DNA of 64,000 bases, from the NCBI GenBank assembly GCA_002472275.1, contig DKRQ01000019.1, positions 140,279-204,278 on the forward strand, written 5' to 3'. The notes under the pieces are model-generated. The model was not told the origin of the DNA and searched no databases. It was given only the letters and a program-made list of their open reading frames with translations. Origin of the DNA: Bacillales bacterium UBA7278. GTDB lineage: Bacteria; Bacillota_I; Bacilli_A; RFN20; CAG-826. Position 1 is the stretch's first letter. Each line of letters opens with the position of its first letter. The position numbers and the translations under genes are program-made. Shown piece by piece: positions 43,612-60,400 of the stretch.

Positions 43612-44484
43612 CTATTCTCCCTTCACGGGGTCGAGTTCGTATTTGCCGTCCTTTTCGTTACCGTCGCATAGGCAGGGGAAGAACGCCTCTTTGCCGTCTA
43701 TTTCCCTGAAGGTGGCCTTACGGCCCATAGAAACGTCCTCTAAGACGATTTCTTTGTTTACCCCGAAGAAGATGTGGCAATGGGTGACCATGAGCAAAGC
43801 AGGGGGGTTAGGCTGGCTCATGAGGTCCTTGATTTCGTTATTGAGGATTTTCTTGTTGTTCTTATCGAGGTTATTCAAGGGTTCATCCATCAGGATGAGA
43901 CGGCTGCCTAGGATCCTGGCCTGGAGGATGGCCGTGACGATTTGGCACATCTTGCGTTGGCCGCCAGAGCAAGAATAGATGGAACGGAGGTGGGGGTTAG
44001 TGAAGAAGCCGTTTCCTTTCCTCTCATCGAAGAGGCCGATTTTCCTGAAATGGGCCAAATAGTCCTCGACCGCCTTGCGGCATTCCTTCTTTTTCTCCTT
44101 CTTCTCGGAATAACTCATCTTCTGGTTATATTCGATCGTGAGCTTTAGATTTTGGTAGATCGCCGAGAAGATGGAGGAGGTAGGCAGGAAATCGTCTTCC
44201 TGAGGGACGTAGGCGATGGAGTTGCGTAGATGGGCGAGTTCTCTATCGGAGAAGCTATTCATGGCCTTTTCGCCGAAAAGGAAGGGGAATTGCACCTTTC
44301 CCTTGGTGGCTTTGACCGAGACGTCTTTGCCTACGAGCATCTTGAGGAAGGAACTTTTGCCATAGCCGTTCCTGCCCTTGATGAGGACGAAGTCGCCTCC
44401 TCTGATTTGCAGATCGTCGAAATCCACGGGTGTCCCGTGCACGTCGATCGTCGCCTTTTGGGTTTGAAGCAATATCTCTTCCAT
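43612..44484 (-). CDS. ABC transporter ATP-binding protein (MacB-type partner)
   Basis: Walker A GRNGYGKSS, signature CSGGQRKM, Walker B LILMDEP, H-loop VTHC; start at M106 of tracked ORF (RBS GGAGGAA). Confidence 0.85.
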   Translation of the reverse strand: MEEILLQTQKATIDVHGTPVDFDDLQIRGGDFVLIKGRNGYGKSSFLKMLVGKDVSVKATKGKVQFPFLFGEKAMNSFSDRELAHLRNSIAYVPQEDDFLPTSSIFSAIYQNLKLTIEYNQKMSYSEKKEKKKECRKAVEDYLAHFRKIGLFDERKGNGFFTNPHLRSIYSCSGGQRKMCQIVTAILQARILGSRLILMDEPLNNLDKNNKKILNNEIKDLMSQPNPPALLMVTHCHIFFGVNKEIVLEDVSMGRKATFREIDGKEAFFPCLCDGNEKDGKYELDPVKGE

Positions 44485-44486
44485 GG

Positions 44487-45449
44487 TCATTTCCTCCACG
44501 TCAAAACGGATGATTGCAGATAAATGGACACTAGTAGCGATAACCCCATCGCTAGAAGCATCGACGCTCCCGCGAGGGGATAGGTTAGGTTCATGAGGAA
44601 GAAGATGAGGACGATGAGGAACGGGGGCAAGAAGCGGTAGAGGCCCTTTTCCAGTAGGAAACGGTAGAAGACGCCCCACCTGGAGGAACCGCTTGTTATG
44701 AGCTGCCTCTTTTTCCTTTGGTCGTCTTTTAGGAAGACGAGCCCCACGGCGATGGGGGCGAGGAGGCACACGAGCACCCCGGCCGCAAAGCGGGGCCATG
44801 ATTCTTGGGCCGCTTTTTCGATTTCGACGTTTTTGAGGCGGATATTGCCCTCGATCTGCATGGGGCCGAAGGTGCCAAATTTCTTGGAGAAGCTAACGTA
44901 TCTAGGCTTCACGGAGCGGAGATATTCCTCCATATGCGCGTTGTGCCCGAGCAAGACGATGCCGTAATGCTCATGCTCAAAACCCTTCATCGCGGGGAGT
45001 TCCCCGACGATTTTGAAGGTTCCGTCGTCTTTGTCGTTGGTGAGTAAGGTGTCGCCAACTTTGAGTCTTCTCATCCCCATGACGTTTTTACTCACCATGG
45101 CTTCGCCCGGATTAAGCGAATTCATCGCGGAGACGTAGAAGGGCAACACCTCGGTATAGGTGAATCCAGGGAGCACCATGAGGATATCGGAGGAAAGAGA
45201 GTATTTGCCCGTCTTAACGATGCTTACTCCTGCAAAGTCCGCGAAGGCGTCTTTCTTCTCACCCGTAGAGGGATTTTCATAAGGCAAATCGGCGTAGACC
45301 TTCTCCTGGAATTCGCATTTGCGGAGGACGCTATATTGGTTAAGCGAAGCCGAAACGGGGCCAAAGGAATAAAGACAGAAAACCAATACCCCGAGCATGA
45401 TCAAAAGGGAGGGAAGGTAATCGTGGATGAACTTCCGGAAGAAGAGCAT
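44487..45449 (-). CDS. FtsX-like ABC permease
   Basis: 1 N-terminal TM, extracytoplasmic domain, 3 C-terminal TMs. Confidence 0.6.
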   Translation of the reverse strand: MLFFRKFIHDYLPSLLIMLGVLVFCLYSFGPVSASLNQYSVLRKCEFQEKVYADLPYENPSTGEKKDAFADFAGVSIVKTGKYSLSSDILMVLPGFTYTEVLPFYVSAMNSLNPGEAMVSKNVMGMRRLKVGDTLLTNDKDDGTFKIVGELPAMKGFEHEHYGIVLLGHNAHMEEYLRSVKPRYVSFSKKFGTFGPMQIEGNIRLKNVEIEKAAQESWPRFAAGVLVCLLAPIAVGLVFLKDDQRKKRQLITSGSSRWGVFYRFLLEKGLYRFLPPFLIVLIFFLMNLTYPLAGASMLLAMGLSLLVSIYLQSSVLTWRK

Positions 45450-46687
45450 TATTCCTCCGGTTTTTCGACGTTGAGGGGTTCTTCGGCAGGGATTTCCTGG
45501 GTCTCGGGGGCTAACTCGCGCCTACCATAGACGAGGTTACTATAGACCATGCCGATGGGGAGCGCGATCGCCAGTGCGGCGAGGACGGGCAGGCTATAGA
45601 TCAGGAGCGAATCCACGAAGATATGGCCGCGGATCGCGGAGTAGATAAGCGTGCCTCCAAGGGAGACCACAAGGGCCGCTCCGACGGCGATCAAATCGAA
45701 AATAATGATGGTTTTGCGGAGAATTTCTTTGGTTTTGCCGTTTGTTTTCTCGGCTTCATCGCGGTTACGGCCAAGGAAATCAAAGGCGATTAAGCCGCCC
45801 GCTAGTCCTAACGGAACGAGGATGGAGAAGAGCATCGTGAGCTGGAAGCCACGGTCTTTGCGGGTGGATACGGTGTCCTCGGCGCCTTGCATGTAAACGG
45901 CCTTGGCTTGCACCGCGTTGACGAAATCCTGCTTAAGCCAATTGGTCTTCATGGCTTCGTAGCCAGCCTGCAGTTTGGCTTCCCATTCTTCGTCGGTGTA
46001 TTCACCGGGTTGGCGTTGCGCGTCCCATCCCGCTTTATATTCCTCATAGGTCATGAGCTGGCCCATCGGCTTATAGCCTTCCAGCATCTGGGTGCATTTG
46101 GTGATATCCTTCGCGGCGATGAAGGCCAATTCGTAGGTCTTGGGTCCTTTGCCTTCGCCCCAAGACGCCGCCATCGCGGGGGTAAATTTGGCCATGGCGA
46201 TGCCGGTGGCCATCGTCTGGTAGTTGACCGCGGAATAGATGACGGAGACGGGCAAGGTGAATTTGGAGGCGCCTAAGGTGAAGGAAACCTGCGTGCCAAC
46301 TTGGGCCCCGATTTTCTGGGCGGCCACTTCATCTAGCATCAGGCCATTTTCCTTGTAGTCGCCCTTAACGACGCGCTTAGGGTTGAAGAAGGAGATGTCA
46401 TAGTCCGCCATTTGGTCGGAGAGGAGCAGGTGGATTTTGGCTGATGTGCCAGCCGCCACGGAGATTTCGTAATGATAGGTGGGGAAAAGCCCGCTGACCG
46501 CTTCCGTATTGGCCTTAAAGGTCGTCAGCTGGTCGTTAGAAGGCTGAGTGATGATGTAATCGAAGGTCGACTTGGTGAAAGTGGAGGTCGCTTGATCGAT
46601 GGCGATATTCGTCTCGACCGACATGGCTCCACCGACAAGAAGCAAAGCACCTGCGACGATGCCGAGTGCGATTTTGGCAAGTTTCAT
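45449..46687 (-). CDS. FtsX-like ABC permease (second)
   Basis: Same 1+3 TM topology. Confidence 0.55.
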   Translation of the reverse strand: MKLAKIALGIVAGALLLVGGAMSVETNIAIDQATSTFTKSTFDYIITQPSNDQLTTFKANTEAVSGLFPTYHYEISVAAGTSAKIHLLLSDQMADYDISFFNPKRVVKGDYKENGLMLDEVAAQKIGAQVGTQVSFTLGASKFTLPVSVIYSAVNYQTMATGIAMAKFTPAMAASWGEGKGPKTYELAFIAAKDITKCTQMLEGYKPMGQLMTYEEYKAGWDAQRQPGEYTDEEWEAKLQAGYEAMKTNWLKQDFVNAVQAKAVYMQGAEDTVSTRKDRGFQLTMLFSILVPLGLAGGLIAFDFLGRNRDEAEKTNGKTKEILRKTIIIFDLIAVGAALVVSLGGTLIYSAIRGHIFVDSLLIYSLPVLAALAIALPIGMVYSNLVYGRRELAPETQEIPAEEPLNVEKPEE

Positions 46688-46702
46688 ATCTATTCCCCCC
46701 GA

Positions 46703-47608
46703 TTAGATGGTCACTAGGACGGCGTTGGAATTCCCAGAATCCGTGAAGCCCGCCTTTTTGGAGCAAGCGGAAACGGTCACGGAATAGGGGCCGCCGTAGT
46801 AGTTGCGTTTTTCAAATTCTAGGGTGGAAATGGAGCACTCGTCATCCACGAGGGTTCCTTCTTCGGGGACGAACTGATATTCGGTGCCGTCGAGGTTCTT
46901 CATGGGAGCGCCGTCGATGTTGACTTTGTAGTAATCGGCGCCTTTGACGTGCTTCCAAGCGAGTTTGTTCTCGAAGCTGACCGTGGGCTTGAGGATGTTG
47001 TATTTGTCGACGATCATCGGGATGGTGCATCCGGAAGCGCCCGAGCCGATGACCTCGACTCCGGATTGGTCTTCGGGATAGAAATTCATCTTCATCGTGG
47101 ACTGACCGACGACGGAGGGAGTGATTTTGAAGACGATGCGTTGGGATTCCGTGACATCCGGTTCCGCGGGCACGCGGAAAGCCTGCTCGATCTTGTTCAT
47201 CTGCTTATTGGTGACGGGGTCGCGGTAGGGAATTGGGGTGCCGTCGGTGCCAGAGTCGGACTTCATCAAGAAGGCATCGAAGATCGTGATGGCCTCGAAT
47301 TCGAGAGCGGCTTTCAAAAGGAGATGGCCGCTGGTTTCGGCGCGGGAATAGTAGTCGAACTCGTAGACCAAATAGTATTGGTCAGCGATGCAAAGGCTCG
47401 CCAAATCGGCGTATTTGCTGTAATCGACAACTTCGTTAGGCTTTCCGGTGGAGACGATGAAACCGCGTTTGATCTTAGTCACGTTGACGGTGGTGGTCAG
47501 CTCGATGGAACGGGTGCCGGTGGAGAGTCCGCCGATATGGCTAGATTCACCTCCACAGGAGGCGAGACAGGCGACGATGGCCGGAATCAGAATGAGTTTC
47601 TTCTTCAT
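46703..47608 (-). CDS. hypothetical lipoprotein
   Basis: Lipobox LASCGG. Confidence 0.6.
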   Translation of the reverse strand: MKKKLILIPAIVACLASCGGESSHIGGLSTGTRSIELTTTVNVTKIKRGFIVSTGKPNEVVDYSKYADLASLCIADQYYLVYEFDYYSRAETSGHLLLKAALEFEAITIFDAFLMKSDSGTDGTPIPYRDPVTNKQMNKIEQAFRVPAEPDVTESQRIVFKITPSVVGQSTMKMNFYPEDQSGVEVIGSGASGCTIPMIVDKYNILKPTVSFENKLAWKHVKGADYYKVNIDGAPMKNLDGTEYQFVPEEGTLVDDECSISTLEFEKRNYYGGPYSVTVSACSKKAGFTDSGNSNAVLVTI

Positions 47609-47620
47609 AAAGATTGCTCC

Positions 47621-49486
47621 TTAGTAGTCTAACCCTAGGGTTTCGTAGGTCCTTTCGAAGACTTTGATGGTGGATTCGGGGTCGGTTGAATAAGTGACCT
47701 CTTCGATCGTGAATTCGATGCGATTCGCTTCACGGAAGGTTAGCGGGCGTAGGCCTGGAGTAACCCCATCGCGATAAACTGTCCAGTCGGCGTAGGTTTG
47801 TGTATTCACGTGATCGGAGTAAATCCATTTGACCTCGACCTTGGCGTTGATGTTCCTGTTCACGCCAGGAATGGAGTGATGGAGGACAAAATGGGCGAGT
47901 TTTTGGCCGCTTTCCTTGTCAATTGAGGTGCTCGGTTCATCCCAAGAAATGTTCGGAATGAGGAAGGTGACACGGTTAGAATCCGCGGAACGGAGAATGT
48001 CGTTGCCATTGCCGAGGTTGACGGTCCTCACCGCGTATTGGCCCGCGGCGAATCCATTGAGAGTAGTCTCGGAAAGATCCGTCAAATCCGTCCTCTTTTG
48101 GTCGTTAATGTAAATCGTGAAAGAAGAAGGATCGGCATTATCGAACGTGAAACTCTTGCCATCAAAGGAGATGGTGGGAGCACCGAGTTTGGTGAGTGTT
48201 ACCTCGTTGGAGAACTCCGAGGAAATCTGATTGGTGTTGCCAACGGCCTTGGCGGTAACCTTGTGGGCACCGACCGCGGTGATACCGTTAAGATTGGCGT
48301 CCCATTCGGCTCCGTCTAGATAGTATTGGACCGAATTCTCGCTGCTGACGTTGCTCGCATGGAGGACTCCTTCGGAAATGGAGATGAGGGGGCTATCGAG
48401 TTTGGTCAAAACCAAAGGCGCGGACATCGCGGAATCGATTTCTCCCGCGTTTCTCGCCGCGTTTTTGGCGGTGATGCTGTAGCTGCCGACTTCGGTGATG
48501 GTCTTCACGTCGCCGGTGAACTCAACGCCATCGCGATACCATATGAGGTTTTCGCCATCCGCGGCGGTGAGCGCTCCATTGACCAAGGAAAGCTTGGGAG
48601 TGGGCATCCTGCGGATTTCGGCTTCCACGGGGGTGGCGTAATCGACTTCGGCGTTAGGCCCAATGGTGCGGATGGAAATGTTATAGACGCCAGGGTTAGT
48701 GGTGTCGAAGGCGATTTCGGGTGCGGTCGGGGAGAATGTGGAGCCGTTGATGCGGACATCATATCCAGAAGCATCGGTCGCGGCGGTCCATTTGAATTTG
48801 CCGTCGGTGGCGTCGTAATGGATGTCGGAGACGCCCGGCATCTTCCTTAGTTTCACCGCGGCGGATTCGTCGCTGGGGGAGTAGGCGGAGACGCCGTTGC
48901 TGCCCTTTTTGTCGCTTCCCGCGATGACGTAGGTCTCGAATTGGCTGAAGAAGGCGATCGAGTTGAAATCGTAGGTGGTGGTTTCGGTGTTGTAGTTGGT
49001 GATGGCCGCCTTGGTCTCGGGGTTGCGGAGATAAACGGTGTAGAAAGTGGCATTCTCGATGGGCTCCCAGTTCAAAACGCCGGTAGTGAAGTTGAATTTG
49101 GGGGCAGGGGTGAGGAGTTTTTTCGGGGAAGTGGTGACCTTGATGACCTTTTTGAAGTTCAAATAAGTCAAGGTGACCTCTTGGGTGCCGACGTAAAGCG
49201 GGTCATAACCCGTCACGGTGAACTTGTCGCCGGAAATCCATTGTCCGACGGAATCGAAGGCGTTGCCGACGTGAATTTTGGCGTTGGATAAATCCAAGGT
49301 GCCGCCATAGACGATGGGGTATTCTTCCTGGAGTTCTTTGACTTCGGTGACCACGTTGGTTCCCATGTTGATAAGAACGGGGGCGGTGGCGCCACCGGCG
49401 ACGCCCAAAGCAACGAGGGCGACGCTGCCGATCATGATGGATTGGGCCAGTTTGAGCCTGGCCACTGCGCGAAGCATGTGTGCCAT
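47621..49486 (-). CDS. N-terminally anchored surface protein with repeated beta-rich (Ig/FN3-like) modules
   Basis: Single N-terminal TM then 580-aa Thr/Ser/Asn-rich extracellular region. Confidence 0.5.
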   Translation of the reverse strand: MAHMLRAVARLKLAQSIMIGSVALVALGVAGGATAPVLINMGTNVVTEVKELQEEYPIVYGGTLDLSNAKIHVGNAFDSVGQWISGDKFTVTGYDPLYVGTQEVTLTYLNFKKVIKVTTSPKKLLTPAPKFNFTTGVLNWEPIENATFYTVYLRNPETKAAITNYNTETTTYDFNSIAFFSQFETYVIAGSDKKGSNGVSAYSPSDESAAVKLRKMPGVSDIHYDATDGKFKWTAATDASGYDVRINGSTFSPTAPEIAFDTTNPGVYNISIRTIGPNAEVDYATPVEAEIRRMPTPKLSLVNGALTAADGENLIWYRDGVEFTGDVKTITEVGSYSITAKNAARNAGEIDSAMSAPLVLTKLDSPLISISEGVLHASNVSSENSVQYYLDGAEWDANLNGITAVGAHKVTAKAVGNTNQISSEFSNEVTLTKLGAPTISFDGKSFTFDNADPSSFTIYINDQKRTDLTDLSETTLNGFAAGQYAVRTVNLGNGNDILRSADSNRVTFLIPNISWDEPSTSIDKESGQKLAHFVLHHSIPGVNRNINAKVEVKWIYSDHVNTQTYADWTVYRDGVTPGLRPLTFREANRIEFTIEEVTYSTDPESTIKVFERTYETLGLDY

Positions 49487-50319
49487 TATTTCTGACTCCT
49501 TTCCAGGCGTTTGCTAAAGCCCTTATAGGCTTTGTTGAGAACCTTGATGTGCTTGCGTTTCCTGCGGCTGAAGATGAGGGTCTTCAGGGGATAGACGCTC
49601 GTGACGAAATCCTCGTCGTTGAGGGTGTCGTTGATGAAGGCGACGTAGAACTTCAATTGTTCATCGGTCTTCGCGGTCTTCATGAGGAATTCGGCAAATT
49701 CATAGAAGGCCACTTCGTCATAGTTGCCGAACTTGTCGGAAAGGGATTGCTTGATCTTCGAAACGGAAAGCAAGGTGGTTAGGTCGCCGCCTTTTCCGGA
49801 AACGGAGAAATAGTTCTGATAAAGCTGGCCCCAGAAATGGGGATTGATGGCGTCGCATTCCTTGATGTCCGCCACGATTTGGGCAACGGTGTCGAAGTCG
49901 CCGAAAAGCGAACGGCAGAAGACGACGCGGAGGACGACCTCGGCCAAGCGGTTCCAGGTTTTGCCTTTGTTCGGATATGCGCCGAGTTCACCGGCAAGAC
50001 CTTGAATCTCGATCTTGATGGTGCTCGCGGATTGCTGATCGATGGATTGGATTTCGGCTTCCAGGTTGACCGGGAATGCCTTATTGAGTTCGTTGGCGGC
50101 CTCTAATAGATCTTGATCGGTGCCGGCATTTTTGACGGCCTTATGGATGGCTTTCCATTGGTCCTCACTAGGCAAAACGATGAGGGAACTTTCGTCCTCA
50201 CCTTGGCTTAGCACAATGCTTCCGCAGAACTTGCACTTATAGCGGCCGAGCGACTCTTTGACCAAGCCAGAGCTCTCGCCGCAATGGGGGCATTTGAGCG
50301 CCTGAAGTTCGATTGCCAT
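49486..50319 (-). CDS. zinc-ribbon domain protein, first gene of ABC/surface operon
   Basis: CPHCGESSG...CKFCGS N-terminal zinc ribbon; start at M55 of tracked ORF with GGAGGAAG RBS. Confidence 0.5.
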   Translation of the reverse strand: MAIELQALKCPHCGESSGLVKESLGRYKCKFCGSIVLSQGEDESSLIVLPSEDQWKAIHKAVKNAGTDQDLLEAANELNKAFPVNLEAEIQSIDQQSASTIKIEIQGLAGELGAYPNKGKTWNRLAEVVLRVVFCRSLFGDFDTVAQIVADIKECDAINPHFWGQLYQNYFSVSGKGGDLTTLLSVSKIKQSLSDKFGNYDEVAFYEFAEFLMKTAKTDEQLKFYVAFINDTLNDEDFVTSVYPLKTLIFSRRKRKHIKVLNKAYKGFSKRLERSQK

Positions 50320-50552
50320 GCTCTTCCTCCTTGGGTAGTGGCAGGGGGAGTGAGTGCTCAAAACACTATTTTCCCCCGTTCCTATGGAACATCTTATTAC
50401 ACGAGACTCTTTTATTCTATAAAAAAATACCCAGTTCCAATTCGAATGCGGAAACCATACATTTTTGCAAAGATTTTTCACATTTTTGAGGTGTGAGGAA
50501 TCTCACAAAAACCCTGCAAAAACCCCATATTTTTTGGAACTAAAACCCATAA

Positions 50553-50696: not shown

Positions 50697-51644
50697 ATGT
50701 CACTATTCACTGATAAGGTCGACTTAGGGATGGCGGATTCCCGCGAACACTTGATTGAGAAGTATGTTTTCGACGTCAAGAAAGGAACCATCCAAATCCA
50801 CGTCAAACCCGGCTATGAAGCCATCATCAACGGCTACGACAAAATCGGGCCGAACCAAACCAACACCTACAACAAGAAGACGATCGGCACCACGCTCACT
50901 GCTTTCGTCTACCAGAAGGGCAGCATCGCCAAGCCGATCATCGTTCCCTTCTTCGCCGGTCAGCACACCATTTCGCTAGACGCCCATAAGACCGCCAAGG
51001 CCACGTTCGCCCTTGTCGGCACGGCCAAGATCGAGATCGATGACTACAAGGCGCTTGCTCGTTATTTCGACAGCACCGTGACCTATGCCGATGTCGAGAA
51101 AGAACTCCACGAGAACTTCAAGGACGCGTTCTCAATCCACATGACCGCAGCCGCGAAAACCTATATCTCTTCTTCCTCCACCGATGTCTCGATCCACTCG
51201 GATCTCAAAAACATCGCCAAGGCCGGTATCCAGGGCTCTTCCCTCCAGAACACCCTCATCGACATGGGCATGTCCCTTATGTCTTCCGGCATCAGCCTGA
51301 GGCTCAACCCGGTCGGCAACTCCGAGGAGATCATCGCCGCCATCAACGCCAAATTCAACGAAGCCGCCTTCGATGAATTCGACGAGGCCAAAGCCGATAA
51401 GCAGCGTCAAAGGGAAATCGAAGACAAGAAGTTGGACTACCAGCACGAAATCGACGTCATCAACGCTCAGAACACCGATACCCAGAACCGCAACAACAGC
51501 TATGCCTACTCGGGCAATGTCCCAAAGTATCCTCACGGCGCTCCCGCCGCCCCCGATACCGGCAAGAGGTTCTGCTCGCATTGCGGCAGGGAACTCGCCC
51601 CCCGCGACGAATATTGCCCGTCCTGTGGCACCAAGACCCGCTAA
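50697..51644 (+). CDS. SPFH/YdjI-like protein with C-terminal zinc ribbon
   Basis: Resembles PspA-operon YdjI-type proteins; C-terminal CSHCGRELAPRDEYCPSCG. Confidence 0.45.
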   Translation: MSLFTDKVDLGMADSREHLIEKYVFDVKKGTIQIHVKPGYEAIINGYDKIGPNQTNTYNKKTIGTTLTAFVYQKGSIAKPIIVPFFAGQHTISLDAHKTAKATFALVGTAKIEIDDYKALARYFDSTVTYADVEKELHENFKDAFSIHMTAAAKTYISSSSTDVSIHSDLKNIAKAGIQGSSLQNTLIDMGMSLMSSGISLRLNPVGNSEEIIAAINAKFNEAAFDEFDEAKADKQRQREIEDKKLDYQHEIDVINAQNTDTQNRNNSYAYSGNVPKYPHGAPAAPDTGKRFCSHCGRELAPRDEYCPSCGTKTR

Positions 51645-51669
51645 TCACCACCGATAAGGAGAATCAACA

Positions 51670-52635
51670 ATGGGACTTTTCAAAAGCAAAGAGCAGAAGG
51701 CCGCTGAGGCCGCTGCAAAGCAGAGGCAGCAGCAGCAAGCCGCCATCAACAAGGGTCTACAAGACAGCATGACCCCGAAAGACGATGTTACCCCCTACGC
51801 CAACGAAAAAAAGCGCAGGCAGGAAGAGCAAGCCGCGGCCCAGCACCAAGAAGCCAACCGCGACGAGATCGACGAAATCCTCAGGAACCTCTCCAGGGAA
51901 ATCTCGCTGAGCTTCCCCGACGCCGAAGACGACGCCCAGGAAATCCGCGACCTTTCCGTCAGGGTCAGGAGGATGAACCTTGGCAAGAACCAAGGTGCCA
52001 CCGACGCCATCATGACCTTCATCCGCGCCAAAGCGCAGGACATGATCGTCAAGGCCCACGCCGGCAACTACGCCGCCATCATCGGCTTCTTCGAAGAGCT
52101 TAGGAGCCTCATTAACGACGCGGAGAATCCACAAAAGGCCAAACTTATGGCCGATCCCGCCTACGTCAAGCGTCGTATCCGCGTCGCCGAGCTTTCCGCC
52201 CTCAAGGAAGACCTCCAAGGCCAGAAACAGGCTTTGTATCGCCAACGCGACAAACTCAAATCCAGGATGGAAGCCGGCCTCATTGACCAACGTGAAGCCG
52301 TCTCCAGGGTCGGCGACATCCGCGCTCAAGTCGAAGACTTGGAACGTTCCCTCCAGAACGCCCAGAGCGATTTGAGGGATGCCCAGACCGTCCTCACCGA
52401 GCAGGAGACCCAGATCCGCAACTCCGCGAAAGCCAAGGCCGAGGACATCAACGACTACACCGCGATCGCCGACCAGAAGGCCGACGCCGAGGCGCTTTCC
52501 TCCGAGAAAAACGACGTCATGTCGCAGATCCGTCAGAACAGCACCGATGTTTCGATGGATGACATGCATATGCATGCCAGCACCGGCAAGACCGAACTCA
52601 GCCAAGAACAGGTCGACAACGCCTTCGACTTCTAA
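51670..52635 (+). CDS. coiled-coil protein, possible PspA/ESCRT-III superfamily member, C-terminal AFDF tail
   Basis: Starts MGLF like PspA/Vipp1; long heptad-rich region; ends ...EQVDNAFDF. Confidence 0.45.
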   Translation: MGLFKSKEQKAAEAAAKQRQQQQAAINKGLQDSMTPKDDVTPYANEKKRRQEEQAAAQHQEANRDEIDEILRNLSREISLSFPDAEDDAQEIRDLSVRVRRMNLGKNQGATDAIMTFIRAKAQDMIVKAHAGNYAAIIGFFEELRSLINDAENPQKAKLMADPAYVKRRIRVAELSALKEDLQGQKQALYRQRDKLKSRMEAGLIDQREAVSRVGDIRAQVEDLERSLQNAQSDLRDAQTVLTEQETQIRNSAKAKAEDINDYTAIADQKADAEALSSEKNDVMSQIRQNSTDVSMDDMHMHASTGKTELSQEQVDNAFDF

Positions 52636-52649
52636 GGAGAGAGACGAAC

Positions 52650-53228
52650 ATGTTTGGTAAGAAACCCGCTCAGATGCCTAACCGCACCGACATCAACCTC
52701 AAGTTTTCGTCGAGCCTGCGCCAGTTGAAGCGCTCCATCGACCAGCTCGACCAAAAGATCGAGGCCGAAGTGGCCGCCGCGATTTCCTATAGGAAATCCG
52801 GCAACATCGACGAGGAACATCGTTCCCTCGCCAAGATCCAACGCTACCTCGCCCAGAAGATCCAAAAGGAACGTTTCTATGACAGCGTCGAAGGCGTCAA
52901 AGCCAAAATCGACGATATCCTCGACAAAGTCGAGGTTTCCCGCAACCTCTCCGAGACCTTGGGCAGCATCGGCCAACTCGTCGATTCCAAGGAACTCAAA
53001 TCCATCGTCGGCGAACTCGACACGTTCAACAAGAACTTCGCCAAGACCAACAACATGATGGACGCCTTCATGGGCTCGATGGACGCAACCGTCGGCGAAA
53101 TGAGCGTCGATCCTAGCCTCACCGCCTCCGTTCAGGCGATGGTCGGCGAAAGAATGAAGGGGTACGAGACTCGCATTGAGGAGCAGGCCGAGGCCGACCT
53201 CGATGAGAGCGCGTTCAATTTTCAATAA
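52650..53228 (+). CDS. ESCRT-III/Snf7-fold protein
   Basis: Aligns by eye to CHMP2: LDQKIEAEVAAAISYRKSGNIDEEHRSLAKIQRYLAQKIQK vs LETQEKKIIADIKKMAKQGQMDAVRIMAKDLVRTRRYVRK; ends ...DESAFNFQ. Confidence 0.65.
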   Translation: MFGKKPAQMPNRTDINLKFSSSLRQLKRSIDQLDQKIEAEVAAAISYRKSGNIDEEHRSLAKIQRYLAQKIQKERFYDSVEGVKAKIDDILDKVEVSRNLSETLGSIGQLVDSKELKSIVGELDTFNKNFAKTNNMMDAFMGSMDATVGEMSVDPSLTASVQAMVGERMKGYETRIEEQAEADLDESAFNFQ

Positions 53229-54505
53229 TGGAAAGCATCAACTCCGTCAAAAACCGTTTCTTAGCCGAGAAGAAAGAGGCGGAATACCGCCTCACAGTCA
53301 AGGACTACCAAGGGGCCATGCCTCATCTAGAGAAGGCCGCCGAACTCCTTGGCGAGGTTTATCGTCGCGACATTAACGTGCAAAGGCGCGAGCAGTATAA
53401 GCGTATCCGCGAAGAACTTCGCGACAAATACGACGAGTGCAAGCAGGAACTAGGCATGGCGCCTTCCTCCTCTTCCAAGCCCCGTCAGAGCACCCAGCGT
53501 CCCGCTGGCCCCCGTCCCGCCGCTGGCGGTGCCTCCCAAGCCAAGGGCGGCGCGCCCGCAAAAGGCGGCGACCAGAAGGGCAAAGGCAAGCAAGCCGAGG
53601 AAGACGATGGCATCAACTACGTCGTCAACGGCATCGACCTGAAGCAATTCCTCGCTTCCGAATCCCGTGAGAAAGATGTCATGTTCGACGACGTCATCGG
53701 CATGGAGAGGGAGAAGCGCACGGTCAAAGGCGAACTGTTCCTCTCAGAGGAAGAGAAAGCCTACAAAGCCCAAATCGGCCTCAAGAACAAGAACTTCATC
53801 CTCCTCTATGGTCTTCCCGGCACCGGTAAGACCTACTTCGCGATGGCCCTTTCCAATGAGCTCCGCGAATTCTCGGGCGAGGACATCCCGTTCTTCTCCG
53901 TCGTGTGCACGCATTTGAAATCGTCCCACGTCGGCCAAACCGAGAACAACATCATCGCCCTCTTCGAGTTCACGAAGCAGTTCGACCGTTGCGTCCTCTT
54001 CATGGACGAATTCGACGCGATCGGTCAATCCAGACAGAAGAACTCGGGCGACCCGACCGCCGTCACGGTTGTCAACACGTTGCTCACCCAACTCGGTGGC
54101 TTCGATTCCAACCCGAACCTCCTCTTCATCGCCGCGACCAACTGCCCCTATAACCTAGACGGTGCGTTGCTCTCCCGCGCCTCCCCCAAGATCGAGGTGC
54201 CTCTTCCCGGCGCCGAGGTCCTCTATGGGACTCTTAAGAGGAAGTTAGGGGATCTAGTCGCCCCCGACGTCGACCTCTCCGCGGTGGCCAACAGGCTTGC
54301 CAAAAGCAAGTTCTCCAACCGCGACGCCTCCAACCTGATCGACGAAATCAAGAGGAAGCTATTCGAAGCCCATAGGGCGGACGATATGATCGACAAAGTC
54401 GATACCTCGATGATCACCACCGCGCTGAAGGAGGTTAAGTCCTCCGTCAAGCGCGATGAGGAAATCGCCTTGGAGGAATTCAAGGCGCAATTTGCAGAAA
54501 ACTGA
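53228..54505 (+). CDS. AAA+ ATPase with N-terminal MIT-like domain (Vps4/CdvC-like) no. 1
   Basis: N-term three-helix pattern AEKKEAEYRLTVKDYQGAMPHLEKAAELL; low-complexity G/P/K linker; Walker A GLPGTGKT, Walker B LFMDEFDA, SRH region; start overlaps previous stop (TAATG). Confidence 0.75.
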   Translation: MESINSVKNRFLAEKKEAEYRLTVKDYQGAMPHLEKAAELLGEVYRRDINVQRREQYKRIREELRDKYDECKQELGMAPSSSSKPRQSTQRPAGPRPAAGGASQAKGGAPAKGGDQKGKGKQAEEDDGINYVVNGIDLKQFLASESREKDVMFDDVIGMEREKRTVKGELFLSEEEKAYKAQIGLKNKNFILLYGLPGTGKTYFAMALSNELREFSGEDIPFFSVVCTHLKSSHVGQTENNIIALFEFTKQFDRCVLFMDEFDAIGQSRQKNSGDPTAVTVVNTLLTQLGGFDSNPNLLFIAATNCPYNLDGALLSRASPKIEVPLPGAEVLYGTLKRKLGDLVAPDVDLSAVANRLAKSKFSNRDASNLIDEIKRKLFEAHRADDMIDKVDTSMITTALKEVKSSVKRDEEIALEEFKAQFAEN

Positions 54506-54526
54506 TATCAATAAGGAGATATAACC

Positions 54527-55114
54527 ATGAACGACATCAAACGCCGCATGAAGATGATGGAAGAGAAGCAGCAAGCCAAAGACATCATCAAGCAATTCGA
54601 TTCCGTCATCGTCAATTTGGACAATGGCATCGCCAAGTGCCGCGAGAAGGCCAAGGAAGCCTTGGTCAAGCGCAACGACATGGCCGGTTTCAAGATGTTC
54701 GGCCGTTCCATGAAGTACTACCAGAACATGAAGAACTCGATCGAGGCCATCAAGTGCCAGTTCGAGAACTACCTGATCCAAGTCGAGGTCGCCAACACCT
54801 TCGTCGGTTTGAAGGACGTCCTTGGCAAAACCGCCAAGATGATGGACTCCATGCCCTCTTTGCAGAAGAACAACCGCGACTTCATGAAGTTCAAGAAGTC
54901 CATCATGAAAGGCCAGCTCTCCATGGATTCCATCAACTCCATGATGAGCAACCTGGATCCCTCCGCGGATTCCGAACTCACCCCCGCCGAACTCGACAGC
55001 CTCAAGGACGAGATCCTCATGACCTCCGGCGCGAGCCAGACCACGATCGGCGCGACCGAAGGCGACAAGGCCTCCCAGTCCTCGGGCGACTTCTTCTCCG
55101 AACTCGACATCTAA
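54527..55114 (+). CDS. ESCRT-III/Snf7-fold protein no. 2
   Basis: IAKCREKAKEALVKRNDMAGFKMFGRSMKYYQNMKN ... TAKMMDSMPSLQKNNRDFMKFKKS parallels CHMP helices; acidic C-terminal tail ...GDFFSELDI. Confidence 0.6.
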   Translation: MNDIKRRMKMMEEKQQAKDIIKQFDSVIVNLDNGIAKCREKAKEALVKRNDMAGFKMFGRSMKYYQNMKNSIEAIKCQFENYLIQVEVANTFVGLKDVLGKTAKMMDSMPSLQKNNRDFMKFKKSIMKGQLSMDSINSMMSNLDPSADSELTPAELDSLKDEILMTSGASQTTIGATEGDKASQSSGDFFSELDI

Positions 55115-55123
55115 TCCAAAACC

Positions 55124-56308
55124 ATGGCCTTTGATTACCCGGGGAAAAATAGAGCCTACGAAGCGGCCCTTCAAAGAACGAAGGAATGCCTTTCTAACGG
55201 CGACGTCGAAAACGGCACCCTCTACCTAGACAAAGCGATTACCCTGTCCGCCGAGCTCGCCGCAAACGCGGCGATCCCGGAGTTTCAGGCGCGCTTCAAA
55301 AAGGAGAACGCCCAGCTCCTCAAAATCAAGGGCATGCTCGGCAAGGGCGAGAACCCCTTCCGGAAGAAAGCCACCGTTTCTAACGGAGACGGGGCAAAAG
55401 GAGGGGATGGCAAAGCCCAAAAGCCCGAGGAAGGGGAAAACGTCAGCGGCTTCTTCTCCACGGAGATCCCGACGACCACCCTCGCCGACGTCGCGGGCCT
55501 AGAGGAGGTCAAGGAGCAGATTCGCATCAACGTCTTGCTCCCTCTAAAGGACCCCGAGGTTTTCTATAACTATAAAAAGGACGCAGGTGCGCGAATCATC
55601 ATGTACGGCCCGCCGGGATGTGGCAAAAGCTTCGTCGCCGAAGCGATCGCCGGCGAGCTCAAGTGCCATTACGCGGTCATCACCTCCGACCAAATCCTCG
55701 ACAAGTATGTAGGCGTCGCCTCCAAAAGGATCAAGGCCGTCTTCGACGAAGCCGAGAAATACGACAACGTCCTTCTCTTCTTCGACGAAATCGACGCGCT
55801 TTGCGCTTCCCGCGACTCCGACGATTCCGCTCACACGAAGGACATTTTGACGACCTTCCTCACCTGCATGTCGGGTTTCAAACCCAAAGACAAATCCTTG
55901 AAGGTCATCATCGGCGCGACCAACAGGCCGTGGGCGATCGACTCCGCTTTGGTCCGTGGCCAGCGTTTGGACACCGCGATCTACGTCCGCCTGCCCGACC
56001 GCAAGGCCAGGGAATTCTTCGTGAAGAAGGAGTGGGAGAAGTTCGCCAACATCTACGAAGGCAGCGACCTCACGATGGATTACGCGATCGACGCCCTCGA
56101 TGGGTTCTCCGGCGCGGATATCAAGACGATCCTCGACCAAGCAAAGACCAAGACATTGACCCGTGTTTTGCAGGACAATTTGCCAAAAGGGCAATATTAC
56201 AAGGTGTCCAAGGCGGATTTCGACTCCGCTTTGGCGGCCCACCATAACCCCGTCACCGCCGAAATGCTACTTAGATACGAAGCCTTCGGGAAAGGAATGA
56301 CCGAATGA
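55124..56308 (+). CDS. AAA+ ATPase with N-terminal MIT-like domain no. 2
   Basis: N-term LSNGDVENGTLYLDKAITLSAELAANA; Walker A GPPGCGKS, Walker B LLFFDEIDA, SRH GATNRPWAIDSALVRGQRLD. Confidence 0.75.
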   Translation: MAFDYPGKNRAYEAALQRTKECLSNGDVENGTLYLDKAITLSAELAANAAIPEFQARFKKENAQLLKIKGMLGKGENPFRKKATVSNGDGAKGGDGKAQKPEEGENVSGFFSTEIPTTTLADVAGLEEVKEQIRINVLLPLKDPEVFYNYKKDAGARIIMYGPPGCGKSFVAEAIAGELKCHYAVITSDQILDKYVGVASKRIKAVFDEAEKYDNVLLFFDEIDALCASRDSDDSAHTKDILTTFLTCMSGFKPKDKSLKVIIGATNRPWAIDSALVRGQRLDTAIYVRLPDRKAREFFVKKEWEKFANIYEGSDLTMDYAIDALDGFSGADIKTILDQAKTKTLTRVLQDNLPKGQYYKVSKADFDSALAAHHNPVTAEMLLRYEAFGKGMTE

Positions 56309-57876
56309 TCAACAACGCAGACATCCTCCGCGAAGCCAAAGCCGCGATCGTCCGTGGCGATTACCGCACCGCGACCAAGCACATCGAAAAACTGATGACC
56401 CTTCTCAAGTTCGACTTTGAGAACGGCATCGACCGTGAGAAGAATGGCAGGGCCTTCAACGCCCTGGCCAAAGTCAGGAGGGAACTGATTGCCGGAAGTC
56501 TCAGCGAGTCTTCCTATGCCCTTTTGAAGATCCCTTCCCCGAAGCCGAAATACGAGGCCCCCTCCGCGCCGAAGCCCGCGGCCCCCAAAGAGGATCCCTT
56601 CGCCGGCTATAATCCCGACGCGAAGCCGATCGGCGGAAAACCTGCTCCCGCGCCAAAACCAGAACCCAAGCCGGAGCCCAAGGACGAAGAACCCGAAAAG
56701 CTCTCCCCCGAGGACGCCGCGCTTGCAGCCAAACCCGAAACCCAGTTCCACTGGGATGAGATCCCGACCGTCACCTTTGAGGACATCGCGGGCCTAGACG
56801 AATGCAAAGCCCTCGTCGAAAGGAAGGTTTTGCTTCCCTTGCTCCACCCCGAGATGCTAGAAGGCTACGTCGCCGGCGGCGGCGGAGGCGTTTGCCTCTA
56901 TGGCCCTCCGGGCACCGGCAAAACCATGATCTCCGCGGCCATCGCCAACAGGATCAACGCTAAATTCTGCTCCATCACCCCCTCCGATTTGCTTCAGCAG
57001 GGGTTAGGCAACACCGAGAAGGCCGTCAAAGCCCTCTTTGCGGAAGCCCGTTCCTATCCCTGCGCGGTCATCTATTTCGACGAAATGGACTCAATCGCCC
57101 CGAAGAACACCAAATCGACCGCGGCCAGGCAACTTCGTTCCGAGTTCCTCGCCCAACTTCAAGGCGTTTCTAGCTATGGCAAGAAGAGCAAGAACATCCT
57201 CTTCCTCATCTGCGCGACCAACAAACCATGGGATATCGATTCCGCCTTCTTACGTCCGGGCCGTTTCGGCACGAAGATCTACGTCGGCTTGCCCGATGAC
57301 GCGGCGAGGCGTTACATCATCACCCACCGTTTGGACAAGATCAAATCCAAGCGCACCGTCGAGATCAGGCCCGACATCGACATCGACATGATCGTCGAGA
57401 AGACGAACGGCTTCAACTGCGCCGACGTCTCGAACTTCCTCAATTCCGTCGAGGAGGTATCCCTTGTCCGTGCGATGAAGACCGGCGAGAAATACATCGC
57501 CAACCACGACTTTGTCCTCGTTCTTAAGAAAGCCGTCTCCTCCGTCCAGGCCGACGACATCATCAAACTCGATGCCTGGCGTAAGGAAAACGATGCGCCG
57601 ATTAGCTTCGATGACGACGAACTTGCCGGCAAACCCAAGGAAGAACCGGCCCCGACCGAACCCGCGGCACCCGCTCCTGAGCCAGCGCCTGCCCCTGCAC
57701 CCGCTCCGGCATCCGAGCCCGCCCCCGAACCTGCACCAGCACCCGAACCGGCCCCGGCACCTGAGCCTGCTCCAAGTGGAGAACCCGCCGCCCCGACGGA
57801 GGGCGATTCCTCATCTTCCGCGTTCGACGATTTCCTCTCCGGAATCGACGATTCGCTACCAAAAGACGGCGAATAA
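56305..57876 (+). CDS. AAA+ ATPase with N-terminal MIT-like domain no. 3, Pro/Ala/Glu-rich C-terminal tail
   Basis: N-term REAKAAIVRGDYRTATKHIEKLMTLL; Walker A GPPGTGKT, Walker B IYFDEMDS, SRH CATNKPWDIDSAFLRPGRFG; tail PAPEPAPAPAPAPASEPAPEPAPAPEPAPAPEPAP; 4-nt overlap with previous gene. Confidence 0.75.
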   Translation: MINNADILREAKAAIVRGDYRTATKHIEKLMTLLKFDFENGIDREKNGRAFNALAKVRRELIAGSLSESSYALLKIPSPKPKYEAPSAPKPAAPKEDPFAGYNPDAKPIGGKPAPAPKPEPKPEPKDEEPEKLSPEDAALAAKPETQFHWDEIPTVTFEDIAGLDECKALVERKVLLPLLHPEMLEGYVAGGGGGVCLYGPPGTGKTMISAAIANRINAKFCSITPSDLLQQGLGNTEKAVKALFAEARSYPCAVIYFDEMDSIAPKNTKSTAARQLRSEFLAQLQGVSSYGKKSKNILFLICATNKPWDIDSAFLRPGRFGTKIYVGLPDDAARRYIITHRLDKIKSKRTVEIRPDIDIDMIVEKTNGFNCADVSNFLNSVEEVSLVRAMKTGEKYIANHDFVLVLKKAVSSVQADDIIKLDAWRKENDAPISFDDDELAGKPKEEPAPTEPAAPAPEPAPAPAPAPASEPAPEPAPAPEPAPAPEPAPSGEPAAPTEGDSSSSAFDDFLSGIDDSLPKDGE

Positions 57877-57941
57877 GCGGGAAATCGCCGCAAAACCATT
57901 AGATTTCCTAAATTGCGATACCCAAGAAAGGAGTAGCGATC

Positions 57942-58889
57942 ATGAAAGAAAAACCCGAAATCTGCCCCGTTTGCAAAGGAAGGCTCTTCCTCACCAATCG
58001 CGACGGGACCAAGACCTGCGCGAGCTGCGGTCATACCCTAGGCACCCCATCCGCGCATGGCGGACGTTCCGCTGCCGCCCCCGTCAGGCCCTCTCCCTCC
58101 AAGACGGAGAAGTGTCCTTCCTGTGGCTCCGTGGCCAACTACGTCAGTACCGACGCCGACGGCAAGGAGATCTACGCTTGCTCCTTCTGCGGCTCGAAGT
58201 TCACCCCTAAGCCGCGCGTCGAGGCCAAACCCAAAGAACCAGAACCCGAAAAACCCGCGGCCCCCCTCAAAGACGAGCTAGACGGCAGGGAAATCTTCGC
58301 CCTTGCCAAAGCCAATACGGTCGAGATCTTCTGCCGCAGTGGCTCCGGCGCCTCGGCGGGATCCGGCTTCTTCATCGCCGATAACTTCGTGATGACCAAC
58401 GCCCACGTCGTCTTCGATGACTTCGGCGGGGCAAACCCGACCCCGTCCTCCTACATCGCCGTTTGCTTCAAAGGAGGCAAGCAACATGGCGCGGAAATCC
58501 TCGCGGCCAACCTCGACGAGGACATGGCGATCCTAGCGACTGACCTCTCTTGCTCCGCCATCGCCGAAATCGCGAAGGAGATGCCCGAGACCGGCGAGAC
58601 CATCTACGCGGTCGGCAACTCTGCGGGACAAGGCATGTGCATCATGGAAGGACTCGTGGCCGACCAACTCCGCGAGATCGCCGACAACGACTACATGATG
58701 ATCTCCGCGAACATCGTCGGCGGCAACTCCGGCGGCCCGATCTTCAATAAGCACGGCAAAGTCGTCGGCATCGTCACCCTCGGTTCCAACGAGGCGGTCG
58801 CGATGAACTATGGCATCCCCGTTCCCCGCATCGAGAGATTCATCAAGTCGGTGGAACAAAAAGTCGGCAAGAAATTCGCCCGTAAGTAA
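57942..58889 (+). CDS. double zinc-ribbon protein fused to trypsin-like (S1) serine protease domain
   Basis: CPVCKG...CASCG and CPSCGS...CSFCGS; protease motifs TNAHVV, DMAIL, GNSGGP. Confidence 0.65.
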   Translation: MKEKPEICPVCKGRLFLTNRDGTKTCASCGHTLGTPSAHGGRSAAAPVRPSPSKTEKCPSCGSVANYVSTDADGKEIYACSFCGSKFTPKPRVEAKPKEPEPEKPAAPLKDELDGREIFALAKANTVEIFCRSGSGASAGSGFFIADNFVMTNAHVVFDDFGGANPTPSSYIAVCFKGGKQHGAEILAANLDEDMAILATDLSCSAIAEIAKEMPETGETIYAVGNSAGQGMCIMEGLVADQLREIADNDYMMISANIVGGNSGGPIFNKHGKVVGIVTLGSNEAVAMNYGIPVPRIERFIKSVEQKVGKKFARK

Positions 58890-58963: not shown

Positions 58964-60400
58964 ATGCCGAAAACCAAAGTACCGCAGAACGTGAAGCCCG
59001 AAGGCTATTGGAGGGCCATCGGGGCTTTTTCCATCGATTTGGCCCTAACGATCGTGGCCATCGTCCTCCTCTATGTCTCGATTGGCAACACCCTTATTTA
59101 TAAGGCCGTCGACTATGCGGGCGACATCGCCAAGATGGACGCCTTCATGGAAGGGACCGCCCTCGTCAATATCAAGGCCCCCAAATCCTATGGCTATTTG
59201 GACTTCCAGGACAAGGAAGGGGAAGTGCCGGCCTATCAAAAGTACATCGATCGCGTTTGGAACTATTTCACCGTCTTATGCGCGGACCCCAATTCGGGAT
59301 ATGACATCAACCCGCCGATGACCTCCTTCGATAACGAACACGACTTCGTGCCCTTCACCGGCGAGAAGACCGTCGAAAACATCGGCAAATGGGTCTATGA
59401 CCATTACTTTACCAGCAATCTTTGGAAGGCCCCTGTGAAAGAGGGCACCCAGGATCCCGACTATTCGAAGGCCCCGATTCCCGCCGAAGACCCGACGGGA
59501 CGCGAGGCCAAACTGAAGACCGCGATGTATGACGTTTCCACGACCACCCCAAAAGGAACCTACGTCTTCACCGTGAGCCACATCTTGGCCCAGAACAAAT
59601 ACGCCGCTTTGGCCAAAACCGAAAGGCTCCATGGCTGGTTCGCCTGGATGCCTTGGTTCGCGGTGGCCCCCGTCATCTTCTTCTTCGTCATCCCCGTGGC
59701 GAGCCGTAACGGCAGGACCATCGGCAAAAGGATCGTCGGAACAGCGGTATTAGGAAGCGACGGCTATACCGCCAAGAAGCTCAACATCGTCCTTCACTAT
59801 TTCTTCCCGACCATCTATTGGTTCATTCTGATGTTGCCTTATCAAGGCATAACCTTTCCCCTCTTCGTCTTATTGCTCCTAGTGGAATACATGACTTTGG
59901 TCATGACCCACAACCATCAATCCATCCACGACAAGATCGCCCAGACGATCGTAGTCAACGCCAAGCAATCCACGTGGTTCGCGAGTAGGGAGGATGAAGA
60001 GGAATATCTCAAGAGCCACCCCAATTCCTACGTCGCAAAGCTTCGCAGGGACGAGGAATGGGAATCCAATCCCCGTTACGCGGCGACCACCGCGGCCATC
60101 GCCGCCCAGGACGCCATCGTCGACTCCACGACGATCGGCAGGGCCAGGAAGGAAGCCGAGGCCATCTCCTCCTTCGACGAATTCGAGCGCAAATCCGATG
60201 AGGATTACGCGAGAAGGGAATCCGAGGCAAAGGCTAACTCCGAGCTTCAGGAAGAGCCCGAAGAGGAACTATCCGAGCAGCAGAAGCAAGAACTCGCCGA
60301 CCTCGCCAAGATGGAAGGCCTAAGCGAAGAAGAAGGCTCCGCCGCCCTCGAGGAAGAAGAACCCGAGGGCGAGGAAGACGACTTCGCCGACAAGAAGTAA
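58964..60400 (+). CDS. RDD-family membrane protein with large extracytoplasmic insert and acidic C-terminal tail
   Basis: YWRAIGAFSIDLALTIV, GKRIVGTAVL, HDKIAQTIVV (RDD motifs); tail EEEPEGEEDDFADKK. Confidence 0.6.
   Translation: MPKTKVPQNVKPEGYWRAIGAFSIDLALTIVAIVLLYVSIGNTLIYKAVDYAGDIAKMDAFMEGTALVNIKAPKSYGYLDFQDKEGEVPAYQKYIDRVWNYFTVLCADPNSGYDINPPMTSFDNEHDFVPFTGEKTVENIGKWVYDHYFTSNLWKAPVKEGTQDPDYSKAPIPAEDPTGREAKLKTAMYDVSTTTPKGTYVFTVSHILAQNKYAALAKTERLHGWFAWMPWFAVAPVIFFFVIPVASRNGRTIGKRIVGTAVLGSDGYTAKKLNIVLHYFFPTIYWFILMLPYQGITFPLFVLLLLVEYMTLVMTHNHQSIHDKIAQTIVVNAKQSTWFASREDEEEYLKSHPNSYVAKLRRDEEWESNPRYAATTAAIAAQDAIVDSTTIGRARKEAEAISSFDEFERKSDEDYARRESEAKANSELQEEPEEELSEQQKQELADLAKMEGLSEEEGSAALEEEEPEGEEDDFADKK

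Follow-up and report, generated by a model that had tools for sequence, protein, structure and literature searches.

The locus described here raises the question of what recognizes the short aromatic and acidic tails with which several products of a single bacterial operon end. The window, by which we mean the whole analysed stretch of 64,000 nucleotides from Bacillales bacterium UBA7278 (contig DKRQ01000019.1, positions 140,279 to 204,278), bears on its + strand, like every window feature below for which no other strand is given, a tightly packed operon with an eight-gene core (50697-58889) that carries the tail-bearing genes, two of which code for Snf7-like proteins, together with genes for three AAA ATPases. 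An original prediction, made from the sequence of the window, took the tails to be bacterial counterparts of the MIT-interacting motifs (MIMs) through which ESCRT-III subunits recruit Vps4. Our analysis makes it very probable that the tails are functional linear motifs of some kind and, with a probability that we put at about 0.5, that they are MIM-like docking motifs for MIT-like N-domains of the co-encoded ATPases, by analogy with MIM-MIT recruitment. The tails would then be short linear motifs with which the polymer-forming subunits of a conserved Firmicutes ESCRT-III/Vps4-like machine end, and their capture by the three-helix N-domains of all three ATPases would draw these enzymes, and certain accessory proteins with them, to the polymer for its remodelling or disassembly.

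The proteins with the tails in question are a coiled-coil protein (CC; 51670-52635, 321 residues), Snf7-like-1 (S1; 52650-53228, 192 residues) and Snf7-like-2 (S2; 54527-55114, 195 residues). We compared them with 26 close homologues of S1, from metagenome-assembled genomes (MAGs) named 'Bacilli bacterium', with loci L001-L018, which were found by scanning genomes and metagenomes and by looking up contigs and belong to MAGs of rumen and gut Bacilli, Erysipelotrichaceae and Firmicutes, and with six distant loci (L019-L024), the contigs of homologues of the second ATPase, AAA-2; counts of tails over loci refer to 17 non-redundant loci. Snf7 (PF03357) is the top Pfam family for both S1 (E=5.6e-5, 23.3 bits) and S2 (E=7.9e-5, 22.8 bits, with a match covering residues 18-166), each time at a score under the family cut-off of 27.3. 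The same family is matched by 17 of the 26 S1 homologues (best E=2e-6) and by 11 of 17 S2 homologues (best E=1e-7), and one homologue carries the NCBI name 'Snf7 family protein'. An AlphaFold2 (AF2) model of S1 made from 26 sequences, with a predicted local distance difference test score (pLDDT) of 79.5, has helices at residues 12-50, 53-110, 114-150 and 159-188, and its best Foldseek matches, headed by CdvB of S. islandicus and CHMP1B, further include CdvB2, Asgard ESCRT-IIIB, CHMP2A/3 and IST1 (probability 0.9-1.0, E about 0.02-0.3). By its model S1 is an ESCRT-III-fold protein, and the description of the two Snf7-like carriers as ESCRT-III-like stands. An hhalign comparison of S2 with S1 gave a probability of 2%, so that their paralogy is undetectable by this program. 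CC had no match in Pfam, and apart from coiled coils, profile searches of the PDB sequences with S2 and CC yielded nothing informative; the hhalign match of CC to the S1 hairpin is weak (probability 19%, E=1e-3) and involves a common 'GN…Y.N..YV..R' pattern in CC residues ~103-166 (51970-52170). Judged by these sequence likenesses, CC may represent a third subunit of ESCRT-III-like type, very diverged and extended at its N-terminus by about 100 residues. The N-termini MGLFKSK of CC (51670-51699), MFGKK of S1 (52650-52664; M1, K4 and K5 are invariant) and MSLFTDK of the Zn-ribbon protein encoded by the first gene of the operon (50697-50717) resemble the MGLFGK-type membrane motif found at the N-terminus of eukaryotic CHMP proteins.

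The four C-termini on which the original prediction was built read exactly as quoted. CC ends in EQVDNAFDF (52606-52632), S1 in DLDESAFNFQ (53196-53225) and S2 in SSGDFFSELDI (55079-55111), while the fourth, EDDFADKK (60374-60397), belongs to an RDD membrane protein (58964-60400, 478 residues) and lies outside the interval 52600-55114 to which the prediction was assigned. The clearest case is S2, where a conserved helix (…ELDSLKDEILM) is followed by a low-complexity linker (55019-55078) of 25-35 residues, variable in length and with column identity near zero, and then by the tail, [ND][DE]D-F-F-x-x-[IL]-[ND] with zero to two further residues. All of the loci (17/17) have this tail; F190 does not vary among them, and D188 is conserved in at least 90%. 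In S1, F189 is at least 90% conserved among the 26 close homologues, and Φ-F-x-L (Φ being a hydrophobic residue) recurs in five of the six distant loci (tails LFDLT, LFHLD, LFKLD, LFDLK and DFVLE) and near the end of about 10 of 16 full-length family representatives drawn from a library of 1.84 billion proteins. Residues 189-192 of the S1 model are non-helical, with pLDDT <50, and do not pack on the core, as expected of a linear motif. Like MIMs, the S1 and S2 tails lie outside the helical core, and the tails form short conserved islands among orthologues, most clearly in S2. They are conserved in orthologous as well as distant operons, a point on which the original prediction had staked itself, throughout the 17 loci for S2 and in most relatives for S1.

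The segment immediately before the S1 tail deserves separate mention. The last helix (residues 159-188, 53124-53213; ...VQAMVGERMKGYETRIEE...; pLDDT about 90) is the most conserved part of S1, with R168, M169, K170, E173 and E177 invariant, and reads EIDxIVxxR[LM]xQ[YL]DE in the distant loci. Its core, V-x-x-R-M-x-x-Y, loosely resembles the MIM1 core, L-x-x-R-L-x-x-L, and this helix could be either alpha5 or a second MIT-binding element. Further, in P0173, the weakest match of the S1 family and the nearest outgroup ESCRT-III protein, a canonical MIM1 (DNLEKRLEQLR) occupies the position of the S1 tail.

These conservation patterns bear directly on whether the tails are mere compositional accidents of acidic, disordered C-termini that lack any specific function. 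The RDD tail is such a case: outside the window and a relative 99% identical to it, no locus encodes this protein 3' of the operon, unrelated genes occupying that place instead, and since it is not conserved at the operon we do not count its tail with the others, contrary to its earlier inclusion in the set. The loose conservation of the CC tail also fits an accidental origin. For the two Snf7-like proteins, however, conservation already refutes it: F190 of S2 is invariant, the DFF follows an unconserved linker in 17/17 loci, and the motifs persist at 26-44% overall identity against a background rate of about 2% or less. An acidic stretch with Φ-F-x(1,2)-Φ in the last 14 residues was found in 41 of 268 crude open reading frames from the 17 loci, and all but ~3 of these encode proteins of the system; for a stricter motif, [DEN][DE][FIVL]F, the expected frequency among 16-residue tails is about 0.5%. 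We consider accident to be a highly improbable explanation of the tails as a whole.

Comparison across the loci suggests that the tails fall into two classes. Class A (Φ-F-x-Φ) comprises CC, in which the motif takes the form Φ-F-x-Φ-COOH, and S1, in which it takes the form [SL]-F-x-[LF]-x-COOH. Within a locus the two tails are alike, and their middle residue shifts jointly, from D/N in the clade of the window to K/H in L020 and L022; they also degrade jointly in L004/L008 and in L021. This covariation has a permutation p=0.006 over 15 loci, a value that includes no phylogenetic correction. The shared '[DE]-x-[SA]-A-F-[DN]-F' pattern first proposed for CC and S1 holds in the closest relatives of the window and breaks down beyond them. 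Class B (DDFF) comprises S2, AAA-3, an LRR fusion of the AAA-3 N-domain (N3) and a TIR-LRR protein. The tail of AAA-3, SSSSAFDDFLSGIDDSLPKDGE (57808-57873), is class B-like and had escaped earlier notice; its DFF motif is found in about half of the loci, L019 and L022 among them, for example as AAFDDFFSLP, DDFFSSLDDMF, TDFFDDLDL or DDFFSALKDDE. In L018 an N3-LRR_5 fusion (L018:5930-7159) stands in place of AAA-3 and ends in DEFFADLPPLD, so that here N3 has survived the loss of the ATPase core, and in L024 a Zn-ribbon TIR-LRR protein (L024:12648-15368) ends in LDDFFS. Given its presence on these three further proteins, class B behaves as a portable docking motif, and the LRR fusion with its DEFF together with the TIR-LRR protein with its DDFF indicate that both the motif and the N-domain act as portable interaction modules. 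The idea of three different tails matched one-to-one with three MIT paralogues is not borne out, as the CC and S1 tails form a single co-varying class and DDFF occurs also on AAA-3, the N3-LRR fusion and the TIR-LRR protein.

A different use of such tails would be in the polymer itself. Tail-to-core contacts occur in ESCRT-III co-polymers, for instance between the C-terminus of CHMP1B and IST1, and the tails of this operon might likewise dock on the helical core of an adjacent or partner ESCRT-III subunit for polymer assembly or auto-inhibition, as in a co-polymer of S1, S2 and CC. The presence of two Snf7 paralogues and a possibly related CC (the 19% hhalign match in the hairpin region), the covariation of the CC and S1 tails, and the CHMP1B and IST1 structures among the fold matches of S1 are all compatible with this. 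The occurrence of DDFF on proteins outside the ESCRT-III fold (AAA-3, N3-LRR and TIR-LRR) instead favours recruitment over lattice building, and the tail in the S1 monomer model is disordered and unpacked; we regard a role confined to the polymer as quite unlikely.

Recruitment directs attention to the ATPases, which are encoded at 53228-54505 (AAA-1, 425 residues), 55124-56308 (AAA-2, 394 residues) and 56305-57876 (AAA-3, 523 residues). All three are AAA proteins of the classic clade (PF00004, 108-118 bits, AAA-2 scoring 118 bits). NCBIfam CdvC is matched at about 160 bits by AAA-2 and AAA-3, against an equivalog cut-off of 650, and CDC48 and PAN score alike; Pfam Vps4_C is matched by 70 of 106 full-length AAA-2 homologues (best E=3e-5), and in a phmmer search of the PDB with AAA-2 the proteins AFG2, VAT and p97 D2 rank first. 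In its build AAA-2 appears Vps4-like. In the distant clade the third ATPase (L019:11236-12804, L020:11125-12582, L022:11197-12678 and L024:11169-12635) matches RuvB_N, AAA_lid_4 and WHD_RuvB rather than classic AAA; its core is 16-25% identical to that of AAA-3 in the window, and it has an N3-like start with weak matches to the corresponding hidden Markov model (HMM).

The first ~78 residues of each ATPase form a helical domain, to which a linker rich in Pro, Lys and Ala is attached: N1 in AAA-1 (53228-53461), N2 in AAA-2 (55124-55363) and N3 in AAA-3 (56305-56538), of which N1 and N3 are candidate MIT-like receptors and N2 is a three-helix, MIT-like domain. HMMs of these domains match only their own paralogue in every locus, with the N3-LRR_5 fusion of L018 as the sole exception. 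The AF2 model of N2 (AAA-2 residues 1-85, 107 sequences; pLDDT 87.5) has helices at residues 5-24, 28-48 and 52-73, and its best superpositions by template-modelling score are MIT domains, namely those of CdvC (2w2u, 0.78/0.88), Vps4 (9bl8, 0.78; 2v6x, 0.74) and MITD1 (4a5x, 0.75), with root-mean-square deviations of 1.1-2.3 Å (1.1 Å for 4a5x). We also built an MIT profile for hhalign from four sequences, those of VPS4A, VPS4B, yeast Vps4 and S. acidocaldarius CdvC, the first two of which were verified. N1 matched this small Vps4/CdvC profile with a probability of 65% (E=6e-5, 55 columns in register), and N3 matched N1 with a probability of 90%. The modelled fold of N2 is MIT-like; because the sequence evidence for MIT is weak, we call these domains MIT-like and not MIT. 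The presence of three MIT-AAA ATPases had been asserted at the outset: the three N-domains are indeed distinct and conserved, and that of AAA-2 superposes on MIT, but the Pfam MIT family is not detected in them. N2 ends in an NPF tripeptide (AAA-2 residues 77-79, 55352-55360) placed directly after helix 3; among the 107 homologues, in which domain identity falls to about 25-45%, N77 and P78 never vary, while conservation of F79 is at least 90%; the tripeptide may either cap the bundle or serve as another linear motif.

An ESCRT-III core joined by a flexible segment to a terminal motif, alongside ATPases with a tethered N-domain, is the architecture of the MIM-MIT pair, and it is on this ground that we favour MIM-like docking. 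Several observations nevertheless weigh against it. On the side of the tails, none matches MIM1 (a helix of the form LxxRLxxL[KR]) or the Pro-rich MIM2; at 4-9 residues the motifs are also shorter than most MIM helices. The CC tail is conserved loosely and by property alone, as an acidic stretch, two hydrophobic residues and a terminal hydrophobic residue (its orthologues end in AFDF, MFDF, MFNF, LFKM, FFKM, FLNTL, LFNSI and similar), and CC itself is not demonstrably an ESCRT-III protein. On the side of the N-domains, Pfam MIT was not detected by sequence in any of them, the comparisons of N2 and N3 with the four-sequence MIT profile were negative, the N2 profile recovered only insignificant TPR and complex-I matches and no MIT chain among the PDB sequences, and the Foldseek E-values of the N2 model to MIT (0.5-1.3) are not significant, with generic bundles of three helices, FliS among them, outranking MIT by E. 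Finally, a DDFF tail on AAA-3, a protein that itself possesses a candidate receptor domain, complicates a simple reading of substrate and enzyme.

The shortness of the motifs, together with the nature of their presumed partners as classic-clade AAA ATPases of unfoldase type, also invites the view that the tails are C-terminal tags read by the AAA+ ring or pore, comparable to ssrA and ClpX, which would mark subunits for threading and disassembly and leave the N-domains to bind something else. In nearly all relatives the spacing between the S1 motif and the free C-terminus is indeed constant (F-x-L-x-COOH), and in many loci the last residue of the CC motif is also that of the protein. The S2 motif, by contrast, tolerates zero to two residues after it, the motif is also found on the tail of an ATPase and on LRR and TIR proteins, and three conserved, paralogue-specific N-domains are left without a ligand. 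We think direct reading by the ring unlikely.

If MIM-like docking is correct, the pattern of divergence suggests how the parts are wired. Between the window and the distant loci, S2 retains 44% identity, the AAA-2 N-domain 42% and the AAA-2 core 57%, while the values for S1, the AAA-1 N-domain and CC are 26%, 26% and 23%; by sequence identity, then, divergence runs by module. When gene order is also considered, two wiring modules are favoured, which we infer to consist of CC and S1 with AAA-1, and of S2 with AAA-2 and/or AAA-3. The N-domain of AAA-1 is accordingly the proposed receptor for class A and that of AAA-2 or AAA-3 the proposed receptor for class B; both the binding of motif to N-domain and the assignment of partners are inferred.

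In the window the eight core genes are those for a Zn-ribbon protein (50697-51644, 315 residues, with a C-terminal Zn-ribbon), CC, S1, AAA-1, S2, AAA-2, AAA-3 and a trypsin-like protease (57942-58889, 315 residues, with two Zn-ribbons). S1 and AAA-1 overlap by 1 nucleotide and AAA-2 and AAA-3 by 4 nucleotides, while the genes for S2 and AAA-2 share a reading frame and are separated by 9 nucleotides. The first gene product had been considered as SPFH/YdjI-like; this is unsupported, as profile searches of PDB and Pfam gave only coiled coils and Zn-ribbons. Full-length homologues of AAA-2 (878 with E<=1e-30) extend down to 44% identity, those with named hosts coming from Bacilli, Acholeplasmatales, Clostridia and Candidatus Coproplasma. 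The core is kept across many MAGs of Bacilli and Clostridia (L001-L024), and even the distant loci L019-L024 match the window in the protease, the Zn-ribbon protein, CC, S1, AAA-1, S2, AAA-2 and a third ATPase.

CxxC...CxxC Zn-ribbons recur in the system: the protease and accessory TIR proteins have them at the N-terminus, the product of the first gene at the C-terminus. This recurrence, and the co-conservation of the ribbons with the tails, would accord with docking of the tails on the Zn-ribbon modules of the protease, the 315-residue Zn-ribbon protein and the accessory TIR proteins, such that effectors rather than ATPases would be recruited. There is neither precedent nor computed support for such docking, however; the TIR-LRR protein of L024 combines a Zn-ribbon with a tail of DDFF type, and the N-domains are again left unexplained, which makes this a decidedly improbable account.

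The genes flanking the core vary, and include those for LRR_5 lipoproteins, TIR_2-Sel1 proteins and a Big_3 and ABC module. L019 has Cas9, WYL, PRTase/TRSP/PELOTA and TIR_2-Sel1 genes as neighbours, L014 and L015 have TIR_2 and L024 has TIR-LRR. TIR proteins at several loci have N-terminal CxxC...CxxC Zn-ribbons that resemble those of the operon protease. These defence- and conflict-type neighbours and the Zn-ribbon TIR proteins hint at a role in a conflict system; PADLOC detected no known defence system, the similarity being limited to generic AAA and protease matches. A divergent module on the - strand of the window (43612-50481) accompanies the system in several other places as well (L009, L012, L022), the two being co-conserved. 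It encodes a Zn-ribbon helical protein, a Big_3-like repeat protein of 621 residues, proteins of 301, 412 and 320 residues and an ABC ATPase; in L022 the same Big_3/ABC module sits downstream, on the strand of the operon itself. A more far-reaching picture may be drawn tentatively, and with less than even odds in its favour: the operon would encode a bona fide machine of ESCRT-III/Vps4 type in gut and rumen Firmicutes, made up of two Snf7 paralogues, CC as the third subunit, three MIT-AAA ATPases and a Zn-ribbon protease, and wired by a two-class tail code of its own (Φ-F-x-Φ and DDFF) whose portable DDFF plugs in TIR and LRR proteins. As some loci adjoin Cas9, WYL, PRTase and TIR genes, ESCRT-III membrane remodelling would in this way be linked to conflict or defence.

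Previous accounts confine ESCRT-III together with Vps4 to archaea and eukaryotes (Makarova et al., PMC10936438), and a review regards Vps4-like ATPases as apparently absent from bacteria (PMC7619361); Ravi et al. described Vps4-like transfers into bacteria, but in those cases an unrelated gene has taken the place of snf7 (PMC11237479). In the searchable literature, whose coverage leaves out most subscription journals, we found no described bacterial Snf7 and Vps4 system or its tails, and the tail-bearing system itself seems to be undescribed. Here, Snf7-like subunits and MIT-like AAA ATPases are encoded together by one family of operons in many MAGs of Bacilli and Clostridia, and its conserved tails offer a concrete and cheap handle on the system, requiring a few synthetic peptides and three N-domains of small size. 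Should the tails be MIT ligands, the principle of tail-to-MIT recruitment would reach bacteria with a new motif chemistry, and the two-class code would explain the sorting of several ATPases and effectors to a single polymer; if they are not, they would still mark the nodes of interaction in a membrane-remodelling system that is uncharacterised.

Among known systems, ssrA-ClpX-type tags share with these tails a very short motif near the free C-terminus of a substrate of a co-encoded AAA+ machine, but the tails are acidic and aromatic rather than LAA-like, the S2 motif is not strictly terminal, and the ATPases have dedicated N-domains. The archaeal ESCRT loci (Makarova et al. 2024, PMC10936438) similarly have ESCRT-III genes directly upstream of Vps4-like genes, with a Zn-ribbon protein and variable protein-interaction modules nearby. 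The present system differs in its three ATPase paralogues, trypsin-like protease and TIR/LRR_5 neighbours, and in its Bacilli and Clostridia hosts; no winged-helix (wH)/ESCRT-II or adaptin-like protein was identified in it. With MIM-MIT recruitment it has in common a motif at the very C-terminal end of a subunit of ESCRT-III fold, placed in S2 after a flexible, unconserved linker, and co-encoded AAA ATPases with a predicted N-terminal three-helix bundle and a long low-complexity linker, and the S1-family outgroup P0173 has its canonical MIM1 at the same position. The differences are that the tails, aromatic and acidic and of 4-9 residues, are unrelated in sequence to MIM1 ((D/E)xxLxxRLxxL(K/R)) or Pro-rich MIM2, that the host is a bacterium, that an ATPase and LRR/TIR proteins carry the motif as well, and that binding is a prediction. 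At least seven modes are known by which MIT domains recognize the tails of ESCRT-III proteins (Type 1-7 of the human 'binding code'; PMC9477494). Whereas the three receptors proposed here are all on ATPases, with one further LRR fusion, and two motif classes are favoured, the likeness to the human code lies in the combination of several tail types with several MIT-like paralogues, which implies selective recruitment, and in the reuse of one motif by several clients.

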